In this document: in pieces, positions 56,017 to 60,843 of the stretch
How the letters are laid out: every line of letters begins with the position of its first letter
Position numbering within the stretch: the stretch's first letter is position 1
Source: Eubacteriales bacterium
GTDB taxonomy: Bacteria; Bacillota; Clostridia; Oscillospirales; CAG-272
Length of the DNA stretch: 60,880 nt
Direction of reading: 5' to 3'
Assembly (NCBI GenBank): GCA_045638385.1
Contig: JAZUBI010000123.1
Span: 1 to 60,880 of the forward strand
Notes under the pieces: generated by a model
The model's database searches: none
What the model saw: the letters and a program-made list of their open reading frames with translations, nothing else
What the model was told of the DNA's origin: nothing
Program-made: the position numbers and the translations under genes

Positions 56017-56046
56017 ACAGAAAAGGAATTTTTGAAGGATTACATT

Positions 56047-57021
56047 ATGAAGGAAACTCAGGTAACAAAAAATCCCTATAAAAACAGCGATACAAACAAG
56101 CGGTATTATACCTATGATTACTATCTCCGCCGCACCTTTGGCTCGAAGTGTATGAAGATCCCGATAGACGCGGGCTTTACCTGCCCGAATATTGACGGAA
56201 AATGCGCTGTCGGAGGATGTATATACTGTTCTCCGCGCGGCAGCGGAGATTTTGCCGCGGCAGCAAATATCCCCACGGACGAGCAGTTTGAGATAATCAA
56301 ATCACAGCTCTCCTCAAAGTGGAAAACGGATAAATATATCCCGTATTTTCAAGCTCATACAAACACCTATGCGCCAACCGAGCTTATACGGAGCAAAATA
56401 GAGCCCGTTATGAAAAAGGAGGGCGTTGTCGGCTTGAACATTGCGACACGCGCGGATTGCCTTGAGGACAGCACGCTTGAATATCTTTCCGAGCTTGCCG
56501 AGCGCACGACACTTACCGTGGAGCTTGGACTTCAATCCTCAAACGATGAAACCGCAGATCTCATAAATCGCGGACACAGCTTTGCGGATTTTCTTGATGG
56601 ATACCGCAGGCTTCGATTGGCATCGGACAGGATAAATATTTGCGTTCATATAATATTCGGACTTCCCGGGGAGAGCAGAGAGACTATGCTTGAAACGGTG
56701 AGAGCCGTTGCGGCTCTTAAGCCCGAGCAGGTGAAGATACATCTTCTGCACGTGATACGCGGAACAAGACTTGCGCAAATGTATGAAAGAGGGGAGTATT
56801 CGCCGCTTACTATGGAGGAATACGTTTCGCTCACTGCCGAGGCTCTTACGCTGATGCCGCCCGATACGGTTATAGGCAGACTTACGGGCGACGGTATGCA
56901 AAGTGAGCTTTTAGCTCCCGAATGGAGCAGAAAGAAAACTGTCGTTATAAATAATATCGATAAGCTGATGTTTGCAAATGATTGGGTGCAGGGAAAAAAC
57001 TATAATCAGATCATTTGTTGA
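56047..57021 (+). CDS. Radical SAM protein, TIGR01212/YhcC family
   Basis: GFTCPNIDG...GGCIYC, YFQAHTNTY, VELGLQS, RLTGD. Alternative TTG start at 56032. Confidence 0.92.
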   Translation: MKETQVTKNPYKNSDTNKRYYTYDYYLRRTFGSKCMKIPIDAGFTCPNIDGKCAVGGCIYCSPRGSGDFAAAANIPTDEQFEIIKSQLSSKWKTDKYIPYFQAHTNTYAPTELIRSKIEPVMKKEGVVGLNIATRADCLEDSTLEYLSELAERTTLTVELGLQSSNDETADLINRGHSFADFLDGYRRLRLASDRINICVHIIFGLPGESRETMLETVRAVAALKPEQVKIHLLHVIRGTRLAQMYERGEYSPLTMEEYVSLTAEALTLMPPDTVIGRLTGDGMQSELLAPEWSRKKTVVINNIDKLMFANDWVQGKNYNQIIC

Positions 57022-57126: not shown

Positions 57127-58830
57127 ATGAAAAAAATTTTATCGCTGTTTGTTGCGGCAGCAATGATCCTCTCGTTAATGTTTGTGTGTGTTATCACCGC
57201 GAGCGCCGCCGGTGAGGGTGATTGGGATGTTTACTCAAGTCGCGGAAGCTATGAGGACAAGGACGACCCCAATAAAAGGCCTGTTCCGGGATATGAATAC
57301 ACCGAGGACGGACTGCATATGATCCCTGCAGATTGGAGCGAGTCTACACCTTGGGGAATTTTCCAGACCAAGGAGCAGGTCAATTTGCGCGAGGGTGTTT
57401 ATATGGAGGTCAGAATAGACAACTTCACATACGAGGGCGACAAGTGGTTTGCGTTTAATATCTGGGAGGAAAAGATTGATGAATTCCCGGATGCGAGCGA
57501 CAAGAGCGCGATCGGTCTCGAGGCACTTGTTCGTGTGGACGGAAACAAGAAGATCACAAGCGTTCCGCTTAATATCCATACAAAGTACGGCGAGTCCACA
57601 ACACTCTCATACATGGGTATGATGGACGTTAAGAATGTATATGACGATAACGGATGTCCTATCGTGACATTGCAGATCACCTGGGACGAGACGACCGGTT
57701 ACAGCATGTATGTAAACGGTGCTACGCTCTCGACTAAGGATGCGCAGACCATGACAGATATATTTGACGGTGAGGACAACGACGGATACGCATACATAAG
57801 CTTTTCCTTGCAGAACAGCACAAAGGGCGGAACTGTAGAATGTACAGTGCTTAAATTCGGAACCTCTCCCGAGGATTGCGAAAAGCCCACGGGTAGCGAT
57901 AGCGCAAAGCCTGTTGATAACAAGATAACCATTGCCGATATCGCTGATCCGAGCACAGTTCCTGCAGGCGAGCCCGCAGTTTTTCTTAACGGAAGTGTCG
58001 GAGATTCCGACATTATGTCAAAGCCCTCATCTACTAACAATAGTACTATAATCATAAATGATGATAACTCTGTCACCGTAAACACCACTACAACGTGGGC
58101 ATCGGTGTCGATGTCGGTAAATAACGATGTGTCATACGATGCGGCAGATTTCCCGATGATGCTGATAATCGCGAGAAATCTCTGTACCTGCGTATGGCAG
58201 GACGGAACGCCGAGCTGCGATTGCTCCGAGATGCCCGGTGTTATAACTATGGCGGGAGATACCATTGCGGCGGACAGCGCCAATACCATAAAGGCGTATT
58301 CGTATATCTGGGAGCCCATCTGCGATGAAGATGGAAATATGTATTCGTATTTTATTGCCGATTGGTCGGACTTTAGCGGTAGAATAAACGGCTTCAGAAT
58401 CGACTTGCAGGGCATGAAAACGACAGAGGCGGGAAGAACCGGATTTGACATTATGGGCGTTGGCTTTTTCCGTACCGATGTCGAGGCTCAGGAATTCTTT
58501 GAGGATTATCTCGTTGAGATCGGTGTTTTAGAGGGCGAGGATGATCCCGCGCCTTCCGAAAGCGAGGAAACAACCGACGTTGGAGAATCGGAGTCCGAGA
58601 CGGTGAATGCAGATACCGAAACAGAGGGAAAATCGGACGAGGTGTCTGTCGAAGAGACCGAAGAAGAGAAGACCGAGGGCGAGAGCGCAACTGAAGGAGA
58701 GACGAAAAAAGCAAAAGAGCAGACCACAGCCAAAATTGGCTGCGGTGGCGTTATAGGCACCGGCTCTGTTGCTTTGATTATCGCGCTTATGGCATCGGTA
58801 TTACCTGTGTTAAAAAAACGCGAAAAATAA
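57127..58830 (+). CDS. Secreted acidic surface protein with E/T-rich linker and GCGG-TM-basic tail (paralog 1)
   Basis: Signal peptide ending ASA; beta-rich body; C-terminus GCGGVIGTGSVALIIALMASVLPVLKKREK. Confidence 0.85.
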   Translation: MKKILSLFVAAAMILSLMFVCVITASAAGEGDWDVYSSRGSYEDKDDPNKRPVPGYEYTEDGLHMIPADWSESTPWGIFQTKEQVNLREGVYMEVRIDNFTYEGDKWFAFNIWEEKIDEFPDASDKSAIGLEALVRVDGNKKITSVPLNIHTKYGESTTLSYMGMMDVKNVYDDNGCPIVTLQITWDETTGYSMYVNGATLSTKDAQTMTDIFDGEDNDGYAYISFSLQNSTKGGTVECTVLKFGTSPEDCEKPTGSDSAKPVDNKITIADIADPSTVPAGEPAVFLNGSVGDSDIMSKPSSTNNSTIIINDDNSVTVNTTTTWASVSMSVNNDVSYDAADFPMMLIIARNLCTCVWQDGTPSCDCSEMPGVITMAGDTIAADSANTIKAYSYIWEPICDEDGNMYSYFIADWSDFSGRINGFRIDLQGMKTTEAGRTGFDIMGVGFFRTDVEAQEFFEDYLVEIGVLEGEDDPAPSESEETTDVGESESETVNADTETEGKSDEVSVEETEEEKTEGESATEGETKKAKEQTTAKIGCGGVIGTGSVALIIALMASVLPVLKKREK

Positions 58831-58972
58831 GAAAAAATCGTGTCGAAAAAGCATTGGATATTGTGAACGTTGCTTGACATTCAAGGGCATTTTGTGAATG
58901 TCGCATAAAAGCGCAAATATCCTTTGTATAAATAGCACAATTAGGGTTGATTTATTTTGTCAATATTGCGAA

Positions 58973-59001
58973 TTTACATTTTTTGCGAAATATGATAAAA
59001 T
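58973..59001 (+). promoter_or_regulatory. Putative sigmaA promoter
   Basis: TTTACA-17bp-TAAAAT with TG. Confidence 0.6.
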
Positions 59002-59055
59002 GTTATAGAGCAAAAGAAGGCTTTTGCCAAAAAAGTTTCTAAAGGAGAAAAAGCT

Positions 59056-60843
59056 ATGAAAAAGTTTCTTTCAGTAATGCTTGCTGCTGCATTGGTTGTT
59101 GCAACTCTCGTTGTTGTAACCATTGTTCCCGCAGCTGCAGCTGACGAGGGTGACTGGTCGGTATATGCGATCAAGTCACAGTATCTTGACGGTTATGCAG
59201 ATATTATGCATGACGTTCCCGGATACGAGTACACAGAGGAGGGTCTTAGAATGATCCCCGCAACATGGAAGGATTCCAACCCTTACGCAACCTTCCAGAC
59301 CACCGATCCCGTTAATTTGAAGGATGGTGTTTACCTCCAGGTAAGAGTTGACGAGTTCACATACGACTCAGGCGACAGATGGTTCGGATTCAGCATCTGG
59401 GATCAGCAGAACGTTGAGCTCGGTAAGCAGGGTGATGACTACGGTTACGGCGTCGAGACTCTTATTCGTATTGTTGGTACACTCGAAGCTGATCTCGCAC
59501 AGTACAATCCTGAAGACCAGTCCACTTGGCCAGGCGCATACAGAAGCCTTGAGTGGTACAAGGACCTTGAAGAGGGACAGAGAATCAAGTGCACAAACTC
59601 TGCAAACGATAAGCTCTTCGTAAACAACTTCGTAGAGAAGAAGGATGCAGACGGCAACGTTGTTACCGATGAGAACGGCAACACCGTTTACTGCCCTGTT
59701 CTTACTCTTGAGATAGTTTGGGACGTTGATTCCGAGACCTATGCGATCTCTATCAACGGCGTACCCGCTCCCGATGCATACAACCGTGCTGCTACCGATT
59801 ACTTCGGCGAGCGCGGTGATGAGGCTTATATCGGTTTCTCGCTCCAGAACAACACTCTCGGCGGAACCGCTGGCTGTACCATCCTTAAGTGGGGTACTTC
59901 TGCAGAGGATGCAGAGGTTCCTGAGGGCGATGACAGCGCAGAGCCTGATGAATACTTCAACGAGAAGGCTCCCTTGGCTGATCCCGATGGCATTCAGGCA
60001 GGCGCTCCCGCAATCACACTTAACGGTGTTCGCGGCGAATCCAATGTAGCAGGTAAGCCCTCTTCCGTTTTGGGTAACAAGATCGTTGTTAATGAGGACG
60101 GTTCTGTTAACCTTCAGGCATCTGCAGATAACTCTGCTAACATTAAGTTCGTTGTTGACAACGGAACATCTTACGCAGTTGCAGATTTCCCGATTGTTGT
60201 TATGATCACGAGAAACTTCTGCACATGTACATATACCGATGAGGATATGGACGGTGTTCTCGATGAGTACTGTAAGTGCACAGAGACTGTAAATACCCTC
60301 GCACTTGTTGGTGATATCGTACAGGAGGCAAGCCAGTACTCCGCAAAGAGCAACGCTCTTGCATACTGGGAGCCCTACACTGTAGGTGATGACTTCTATC
60401 ACTACTTCATTTTCGACTGGTCCACTATTGCCGGTGTTGAAGGAAGAATTAACGGTCTCCGTGTTGACTTCGCAGGCATGAAGGGTACCGATGCTGAAAG
60501 AAACAATCTCGATATTTGCGAGATCGCGTTCTTCAGAACACAGGCTGAGGCTGAGGCTTACTTCGCAGCATACCTCGAGGAGCTTGGCGGTGAGGTTGAG
60601 AATAATACAGATACAACCGAGCCCGACACCGGTGATAACGGTGGCAACGTAACCACTGAGCCCGGTTCAACCCCTGTTACCGAGCCCGAGAGCGAGACTA
60701 AGTCTGAGACCTCCGATTCCGGAAGCTCAGATAAGACCACAACTGAGAAGAAGGGTTGCGGCGGTGTAGTTGGCGTTGGTGCAATCGCAGTTGTTGCTCT
60801 TGCAGCAGCAGGTCTTGTTTCCTTCAAGAAGAAAGAAGACTAA
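59056..60843 (+). CDS. Secreted acidic surface protein with T/E/P-rich linker and GCGG-TM-basic tail (paralog 2)
   Basis: Signal peptide ending AAAA; colinear with paralog 1 (VPGYEYTE.GL.MIPA.W, GRING.R.D); C-terminus GCGGVVGVGAIAVVALAAAGLVSFKKKED. Confidence 0.88.
   Translation: MKKFLSVMLAAALVVATLVVVTIVPAAAADEGDWSVYAIKSQYLDGYADIMHDVPGYEYTEEGLRMIPATWKDSNPYATFQTTDPVNLKDGVYLQVRVDEFTYDSGDRWFGFSIWDQQNVELGKQGDDYGYGVETLIRIVGTLEADLAQYNPEDQSTWPGAYRSLEWYKDLEEGQRIKCTNSANDKLFVNNFVEKKDADGNVVTDENGNTVYCPVLTLEIVWDVDSETYAISINGVPAPDAYNRAATDYFGERGDEAYIGFSLQNNTLGGTAGCTILKWGTSAEDAEVPEGDDSAEPDEYFNEKAPLADPDGIQAGAPAITLNGVRGESNVAGKPSSVLGNKIVVNEDGSVNLQASADNSANIKFVVDNGTSYAVADFPIVVMITRNFCTCTYTDEDMDGVLDEYCKCTETVNTLALVGDIVQEASQYSAKSNALAYWEPYTVGDDFYHYFIFDWSTIAGVEGRINGLRVDFAGMKGTDAERNNLDICEIAFFRTQAEAEAYFAAYLEELGGEVENNTDTTEPDTGDNGGNVTTEPGSTPVTEPESETKSETSDSGSSDKTTTEKKGCGGVVGVGAIAVVALAAAGLVSFKKKED

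Follow-up and report, generated by a model that had tools for sequence, protein, structure and literature searches.

Four Cys-containing C-terminal sorting signals with associated CPBP enzymes are known, and one of them has been proved (bioRxiv 10.1101/2023.06.07.544157; PMC11980579). The CPBP protease MrtX cleaves the MYXO-CTERM signal in a Cys-dependent manner; the enzyme that lipidates Cys-type C-terminal signals is stated to be unidentified in the Discussion of PMC11980579, where Lgt is the leading candidate despite the inverted topology. Here, a candidate system of this kind is described, which was noticed in a 60,880-nucleotide stretch of DNA from a bacterium of the class Clostridia (hereafter the window; contig JAZUBI010000123.1 of assembly GCA_045638385.1). 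Two secreted surface proteins encoded in the window end in a tail with a Gly-Cys signature, and the same genome encodes, outside the window, a second, divergent Lgt (Lgt2) directly followed by a CPBP protease; these two enzymes probably process the tail. Systems of this kind are already known; what is new is the signal itself, its CPBP clade, its occurrence in a monoderm and, most of all, the Lgt paralog that is coupled to the protease.

The Gly-Cys tail and its carriers

Both window proteins are encoded on the forward strand. Paralog 1 (567 amino acids; 57127..58830) starts with a predicted Sec signal peptide (57127..57207) consisting of a basic start, a hydrophobic core and an A-S-A end, and paralog 2 (595 amino acids; 59056..60843) has a predicted signal peptide at 59056..59139; both cleavage sites were placed by eye. 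The bodies are followed by acidic low-complexity linkers, which are rich in Glu, Thr and Ser in paralog 1 (58537..58737, start approximate) and in Thr, Glu, Pro and Ser in paralog 2 (60598..60753, start approximate). Next comes the Gly-Cys signature (58738..58743 and 60754..60759), whose Cys, encoded at 58741-58743 and 60757-60759, is the predicted lipidation site. It is followed by an uncharged stretch with a predicted transmembrane helix (58744..58812 and 60760..60825; mean hydropathy of the best 15 residues 2.78 and 2.62, respectively) and by a basic cluster with the stop codon (58813..58830 and 60826..60843). The C-termini read KIGCGGVIGTG, hydrophobic run and the Lys/Arg cluster KKREK in paralog 1, and KKGCGGVVGVG, hydrophobic run and the Lys cluster KKKED in paralog 2. 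The preliminary description of the window had noted this arrangement of linker, Gly-Cys, hydrophobic run and basic cluster, with Gly codons at 58738 and 60754 and no LPXTG in either protein, and the sequences bear it out.

The two window proteins are 38% identical over 580 aligned residues, and since they are paralogs, a common tail proves little by itself. In the same genome (G000, 79.6% complete), two further secreted proteins that are unrelated carry the tail as well, which, together with the wider counts given below, places it beyond chance. A scan of 9760 open reading frames (ORFs) of G000 for helix-plus-basic ends, in which no motif was required, revealed 30 ORFs with a tripartite tail, four of which have a Gly-Cys tail and fall into three unrelated families. 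Besides the window paralogs, these are a CHAP (amidase) protein with List_Bact_rpt (contig C172, 30346-31911) and an endonuclease I and OB-fold protein (C181, 10130-12829). Neither the full-length window proteins nor their tails reach a Pfam or NCBIfam cut-off, the body of paralog 1 included, and an Atlas feature search with residues 29-515 returned only hypothetical clusters at 0.91 and carbohydrate-binding-like leads below 0.9. The family is found in all 24 same-genus genomes and in none of 16 genomes from other families, and every one of its tails in the fetched loci has Gly-Cys, which was not used as a prefilter. Both paralogs also keep a Cys-rich body motif (C-T-C ... C-x-C-x-E; 58177-58230 and 60214-60290), a possible disulphide or metal site.

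A tail profile built from 44 sequences was searched against 1.84 billion cluster representatives and matched 592 protein clusters at E<=1e-3. In 149 of the 150 best matches, Gly-Cys is located 25-30 residues before the C-terminus; the remaining one is a repeat artefact. Together with the four G000 carriers, the 78 long matches form 16 body clusters. According to a simple hydropathy rule, which is not a trained predictor, 64 of the 77 long matches starting with Met have a signal-peptide-like N-terminus, and 18 of the 49 scanned carriers match Pfam at E<=1e-5 (FIVAR, GLUG, Ig-like, laminin-G, F5/8, PPC, endonuclease I and others). The tail recurs within single genomes: 23 of the 121 genomes of a draw at family level, which includes G000, have 2-15 Gly-Cys tail hits each, and G000 has four. 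Across 255 distinct tails, the Cys lies 24-34 residues before the C-terminus.

The consensus was derived from 146 non-redundant tails, which were selected on Gly-Cys, and reads G-C-[G/K/A/S]-[S/G]-[V/T/S/A]-[I/V/L], followed by an uncharged run (median 21) and Lys. Position +1 is G in 97, K in 21, A in nine and S in nine of these tails, and position +2 is Ser in 125 and Gly in 17, so that Ser or Gly is found in 142 of 146. The basic end is rich in Lys (412 Lys vs 84 Arg over the 146 tails). From the K-x-GCGG motif first proposed, Gly-Cys is retained, and neither K-x nor the second Gly is general across the 146 tails. A few tails have Ser-Cys instead of Gly-Cys, including two at loci that adjoin the Lgt2-CPBP operon (L235 and L237), and a doubled Gly-Cys motif is present in a tail of genome G204 (C37, L145).

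Haft defines a tripartite C-terminal sorting signal by cleavage and a new anchoring moiety in the mature protein and by four features that were found here: the position, multiple unrelated carriers, the design of motif, helix and basic cluster, and alternative tails on homologs. The latter were sought among homologous bodies in the already fetched loci, where one body homologous to a Gly-Cys carrier has a Cys-less tail (L048 in G149, 42.6% identity over 427 amino acids) and another has a PVTG-type tail (L047 in G036, 29.6% over 280 amino acids). The Gly-Cys tail is very probably a portable C-terminal sorting signal, and the earlier proposal of a Cys-containing signal extends beyond the paralog family to at least 16 unrelated body clusters and 592 profile matches. 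Cys-less Gly-Gly or plain helix-plus-Lys anchors are found on secreted proteins of operon-lacking genomes (L048 in G149, L049, L090, L091 and L321), and G149 is also without a sortase hit; these may be anchors that stay uncleaved or an orphan signal of another kind.

When compared with catalogued signals, none of the 44 tails reaches the cut-off of any CTERM model, in line with the initial proposal of an undescribed system. The best Synerg-CTERM score is 17.7 against a cut-off of 22.5, the MYXO-CTERM model TIGR03382 matched two of the 44 tails with a best E of 0.11, and no MYXO-CTERM domain, JDVT-CTERM, CGP-CTERM or GlyGly-CTERM model was matched at E<=0.03. Like MYXO-CTERM, the tail has an invariant Cys that abuts a membrane helix with a basic cluster, is carried by many unrelated signal-peptide proteins in a genome and co-occurs with a single-copy CPBP clade. 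However, the hosts here are monoderm Clostridia rather than Myxococcota and Bradymonadales (TIGR03382/TIGR03901, NF040914), the basic end is rich in Lys rather than Arg, none of the 146 tails has a second Cys within four residues, and with Mrt_core (cut-off 100) the CPBP reaches only 16-22 bits, which sets it apart from the myxosortases MrtX, MrtC and MrtP. Moreover, the protease is coupled here with a dedicated Lgt paralog, whereas PMC11980579 states that the enzyme which lipidates MYXO-CTERM is unidentified. The JDVT-, Synerg- and CGP-CTERM signals are likewise single-Cys tripartite signals paired with a CPBP, and substrate and protease genes are adjacent for JDVT as they are for many tails here. 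They differ in that the DP and CGP motifs are absent from all 146 tails, the helix contains Pro in only 13 of 146, the CPBP scores at most 28 bits vs 75 for MrtJ and 20.5 vs 130 for MrtS, and no Lgt neighbour is reported for them in the accessible parts of the literature.

It could be argued that a known sorting enzyme, either a sortase or a rhomboid of the GlyGly-CTERM type, accepts the tail as a variant of its substrate. The design is tripartite as in LPXTG proteins, the passengers are similar (CHAP, endonuclease I, Ig-like, FIVAR, GLUG and lectin-like), and one body homologous to a Gly-Cys carrier bears the PVTG-type tail. Two of the 44 tails (L075 and L077) even pass the LPXTG_anchor model (TIGR01167) on their helix and basic part, and Gly-Gly precedes the Cys in 61 of 149 tails. 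However, the LPXTG motif and spacer are missing, the window tails score 14.5-15.2 bits, below the LPXTG_anchor cut-off of 15.9, 15 of the 24 genomes with tails or the operon gave no sortase, and it is the Cys and not Gly-Gly that is invariant. The GlyGly-CTERM model was absent at E<=0.03 in a comparison that did not include a search of the rhomboid distribution, and the predicted anchor is a membrane lipid and not peptidoglycan. A known enzyme is a most improbable explanation of the tail. Since two tails pass TIGR01167 without an LPXTG motif, automatic annotation may mislabel members as LPXTG proteins.

The Lgt2-CPBP gene pair

Lgt2 (C79, 21289-22086) and the Rce1-type CPBP protease gene directly after it (C79, 22100-22897) are both located outside the window. 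A protease or acyltransferase co-occurring with the tail had been suggested as a target for phylogenetic profiling, and a CPBP protease and a lipid transferase were indeed found. G000 encodes four CPBPs (two on C21, one on C151 and one on C79), one sortase and two Lgt genes; the C79 CPBP was picked for profiling because it was seen beside tail genes, and the other three were left out. In G097 and G134, tail genes have as neighbours an Lgt-like gene and, after it, one for a CPBP, and in G184, which belongs to a different family, the gene order is tail, tail, Lgt2, CPBP, tail.

A CPBP pattern scan of 185,579 species genomes yielded 350 relatives; the locus counts cover the best 80, which are from metagenome-assembled genomes labelled Clostridia, Clostridiales, Clostridium sp., Eubacteriales, Oscillospiraceae or Lachnospiraceae. 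Lgt2 lies directly upstream of the CPBP in all 80 loci, with a gap of at most 30 nucleotides in 61 of the 65 measurable ones and an overlap in 44. A tail gene is found within 450 nucleotides upstream of Lgt2 in 18 of the 80 loci, and these upstream tail genes encode four unrelated protein families (11, four, two and one loci). A tail gene also adjoins the Lgt2-CPBP pair in nine of 22 family-draw genomes, a set that may overlap with the 80 loci and is not independent of them. In the G000 locus (C79, 18280-26217; L097), the pair is flanked by what we take to be an FtsK/SpoIIIE-like gene and spoIIIA-like genes. A seeming Lgt2-CPBP fusion in G186 (C90, L114) is an artefact of a run of N in the assembly, which joins the frames.

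In addition to the family draw, the profile covered an order draw of 161 genomes, which was scored with the first tail model only, a class draw of 250 genomes scored for tails (G389 was not scored for tails) and a phylum draw of 290 others. In the family draw, the CPBP clade (at least 179 bits, the next score being 65) is found in 22 of 121 genomes, all of which carry tails; 21 of them have at least two tail hits with the first model and one (G267) has a single hit with a broader model. Lgt2 adjoins the CPBP in 20 of the 22; in G261 it is cut by the contig end, and in G263 the CPBP stands at a contig start, where Lgt2 would lie off the contig. In the order draw, the CPBP clade (at least 302 bits, next 76) is present in G000, G097, G134 and G184 only, and these are the only four genomes with at least two Gly-Cys tails. 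The class draw contains tails, besides those of G000, in G425 (14 hits, of which 13 were read and all are Gly-Cys) and in G495 (one tail); when the CPBP clade was sought afterwards, G425 scored 336 bits and G495 219 bits, and apart from G000 the next score was 105. Neither a tail nor a clade CPBP was found in the 290 genomes of the phylum draw (best 119.7 bits). Weak single first-model hits in G036, G082, G113, G141, G147, G149, G160, G202, G231, G237, G238, G265 and G279 and later hits in G190, G197, G248, G373 and G480 were read and dropped as not Gly-Cys; a hit in a 24-codon frame of G500 and one of the 14 in G425 were left unread.

The distribution bears on an alternative according to which the tail is an ordinary uncleaved stop-transfer anchor, its Cys is unmodified or forms disulphide-linked dimers, and the co-occurrence reflects the shared ancestry of one clade. 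Most positive genomes do belong to one family, and Cys-less helix-plus-lysine anchors exist on homologous bodies and other proteins. However, the trio of tail, Lgt2 and CPBP recurs in another family (G184), tail and CPBP are found together in two families outside the order (G425 and G495), and the 18 of 80 loci with upstream tail genes from four families contrast with an expectation of well under 1%, as estimated from 1-15 tail genes among about 1500-2500 genes per genome. Moreover, Ser at position +2 stands out against a background of 10%. This explanation is quite improbable. No p-value is given for the co-occurrence because related genomes do not count as independent cases and positive genomes supplied the seeds of the profiles; it is the cases from other families and orders and the four independent families of adjacent tail genes that carry evidential weight.

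The two enzymes and the proposed pathway

The CPBP passes PF02517 (57.1 bits against a cut-off of 22.4), and four members of the clade score at most 28 bits against Mrt_core, MrtX, MrtC, MrtP, MrtJ, MrtS and MrtA, whose cut-offs are 75-250. EExxxR and both His residues are invariant in 23 of 23 sequences. The structure model (predicted local distance difference test score, pLDDT, 90.9) has MmRce1 (4CAD) as its best fold match (probability 1.00, E 0.058), and a search of PDB sequences with the CPBP profile returned nothing real. A predicted complex of CPBP and tail scored 0.01, which gave no answer and was used neither way.

Lgt2 passes PF01790 (109.6 bits against 24.9); four Lgt2 proteins score 70-103 bits against TIGR00544, below its cut-off of 118.9, and the canonical copy reaches 188.7. 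The Lgt2 model (pLDDT 89.0) matches E. coli Lgt 5AZC with a Z score of 19.3 and a root mean square deviation of 3.4 over 237 aligned residues, the next match having a Z score of 7.1 (VIA), and 5AZB is matched with an E of 1.5e-14; a Foldseek search with the same model did not find Lgt. Residues were mapped by alignment to E. coli Lgt and with the motif numbering given in the accessible part of PMC13251419. The equivalents of Y26, R143, G154, Y235, R239, E243 and R246 are invariant in all 20 Lgt2 proteins, which keep four of the six residues that are essential in E. coli Lgt; the E151 equivalent is Cys. In a quick tree, 21 Lgt2 proteins form one branch (SH-aLRT support 99), apart from canonical Lgt and from other Lgt of the Cys-Cys type (N146C, E151C), and a canonical Lgt is kept beside Lgt2 in all ten operon genomes checked. 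A Cys-Cys-type enzyme is the only Lgt found in G251 (C24, L170) and G495 (C6, L300), which suggests that this class is catalytically active; it can apparently serve as the housekeeping enzyme, and its occurrence shows that the class is not specific to tails.

The following pathway is proposed, in which both the lipidation and the cleavage, the order of these steps and the place of the cut are modelled on MrtX and Rce1. The signal peptide would export the protein, and the tail helix would hold it in the membrane with the lysines inside and the Cys at the outer face, as expected from the positive-inside rule and the signal peptide. Lgt2 would then transfer a diacylglyceryl group to the tail Cys, and the CPBP would cut just after the modified Cys, thereby removing the helix. 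The product would be a surface protein that is lipid-tethered at the end of a flexible linker. Cleavage of the Gly-Cys tail by the clade CPBP is probable, lipidation of the tail Cys by Lgt2 is likely to nearly the same degree, and the complete reading, in which the tail marks proteins for both steps, is somewhat less certain than either and is the one we favour.

The predicted pathway resembles two known routes. As in the N-terminal lipoprotein pathway, in which Lgt acts before LspA, an Lgt-fold enzyme that keeps most catalytic residues would modify a Cys located where a membrane helix ends on the outer side, and this helix would be removed after lipidation. However, the helix follows the Cys here and precedes it there, the protease is a glutamic CPBP and not LspA, and Lgt2 stays below the TIGR00544 cut-off and carries N146C/E151C. 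A dedicated Lgt makes sense because the tail helix runs opposite to a lipoprotein signal peptide. With eukaryotic CAAX processing, in which a prenyltransferase acts before Rce1, the system shares the Rce1-family fold, EExxxR and the predicted cleavage C-terminal to a lipid-modified Cys; here, in contrast, 24-34 residues, including a whole helix, separate the Cys from the C-terminus, and the lipid would be diacylglyceryl from Lgt and not prenyl. The tails were also scored against the lipobox pattern of lipoproteins. A forward lipobox is present in none of the 146 tails, and a reversed lipobox, for which positions +3, +2 and +1 are read backwards from the Cys, is present in 55 (mean 22 and maximum 39 in 1000 shuffles). 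Most of this excess is due to small residues and the conserved Ser, and the reversed lipobox is therefore only a lead and no more than suggestive.

Several observations weigh against the favoured pathway. The last CPBP motif is HxxxN in 12 of 23 sequences and HxxxD in 11. In Lgt2, H103 is replaced by Y, A or F (16, three and one of 20) and N146 by C in all 20, and both residues are essential in E. coli Lgt; PMC13251419 notes such changes in natural Lgt proteins, with Y for H103 among those of Firmicutes and Cys at N146/E151 in distant ones, but it also reports weak function for two N146C enzymes and a 'presumed low activity' for one N146C homolog. In G000, the Lgt2-CPBP pair is unlinked to the tail genes, and an FtsK-like gene with a homologous C-terminus lies beside 46 of the 80 loci. 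Tails without a clade CPBP occur in G201 (three tails; 97% complete, 8% contaminated), in G283 (15 hits; 90% complete, with a congener that has the operon) and, as single tails, in G204 and G274, and G210 has a 39-codon remnant. Further genomes of this type are probable because only 33 of the 97 first-pass-negative family genomes were re-tested with the broader tail model, of which three were positive, and the other 64 were left out. Conversely, the CPBP lacks an adjacent Lgt2 in G425 and G495, each of which has a more distant Cys-Cys-type Lgt elsewhere. Finally, the counts lack independence because most positive genomes are kin, and it was from positive genomes that the profiles were seeded.

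Tails without a clade CPBP would be accounted for if the Cys were lipidated by a Cys-Cys-type Lgt and the helix were normally kept, with the CPBP only trimming some substrates or clearing membrane peptides, so that the anchor would consist of helix plus lipid. Indeed, G201, G204 and G274 combine tails with a Cys-Cys-type Lgt, and in M. xanthus surface localisation is not abolished when MrtX is lost (PMC11980579). However, tails are present wherever a clade CPBP is (all 22 such genomes of the family draw, as well as G184, G425 and G495), across orders the distribution of the CPBP follows that of the tail more closely than the distribution of Lgt2, and the catalytic motifs of the CPBP are invariant. 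A kept helix is considered unlikely, although it is the strongest of the competing explanations. The genomes G425 and G495 fit a different division of labour, in which cleavage of the tail is still the work of the CPBP, a lipid is added by the housekeeping Lgt, by some other enzyme or not at all, and Lgt2 serves other lipoproteins and is a mere gene neighbour. MrtX works in E. coli, where it has no dedicated partner according to PMC11980579 as far as accessible, and Cys-Cys-type Lgt proteins also exist in G197, G248 and G251, where no tail was found, and constitute the only Lgt in G251 and G495. On the other hand, Lgt2 proper was found only coupled to the clade CPBP (80 of 80 loci; 20 cases and one at a contig end in 22 family genomes), and all genomes checked for it have a canonical Lgt besides. 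Such a bystander role is slightly less likely still, and lipidation by Lgt2 followed by cleavage by the CPBP remains the preferred reading.

Relation to sortase and wider meaning

The Gly-Cys tail had been proposed to replace LPXTG in its host, which is only partly borne out. Sortase is depleted in carriers, since it was found in nine of 24 tail or operon genomes vs 70 of 97 others; strict replacement was rejected on these counts and because G000 itself keeps a sortase. The two systems often coexist, and many carriers are without a detectable sortase. The only sortase of G000 is encoded in a cluster on C43 beside genes with LPETG and IPSTG tails. Another contig (C73, 1439-6998; L042) encodes four tandem secreted paralogs with APATG, APKTG or SPDTG tails followed by a helix and RRK; the enzyme for these tails is missing or unassembled, as the only sortase found in the 80%-complete genome is the one of the C43 cluster. 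The ORF next to these tandem paralogs presumably encodes a serine recombinase-like protein. In the window, the ORF upstream of the Gly-Cys paralogs (56032-57021) has what we take to be a radical-SAM-like Cys motif, and it shows no sign of membership in the tail system.

In literature searches, which reached few subscription papers and none of the supplementary files of Haft's preprint, no description of the Gly-Cys signal or of an Lgt-CPBP sorting pair was found. The words Firmicutes, Bacillota and Clostrid are absent from the main text of this preprint (bioRxiv 10.1101/2023.06.07.544157).

An additional Lgt that is coupled to a sorting-type protease, and often to the substrates, turns the guess that Lgt lipidates Cys-type signals into a two-gene experiment. 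An annotation model is gained for hundreds of clusters of surface proteins from Clostridia of animal guts, some of which are now mislabelled as LPXTG proteins. If the proposed pathway is true, myxosortase-like sorting would extend to monoderm Firmicutes, in which surface anchoring is usually credited to sortase, and Lgt would be able to act on a reversed helix. A bolder view, for and against which the odds appear evenly poised, is that monoderm Clostridia possess a complete and self-contained 'inverted lipoprotein' pathway, in which a mirror-image lipobox (C-G-S-V) on a C-terminal helix is recognised by a specialised Lgt that adds diacylglycerol, while removal of the helix falls to a new CPBP clade. 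In many carriers, this pathway would take the role of sortase, and an Lgt-family enzyme would be the missing lipidation step of Cys-type signals in general.

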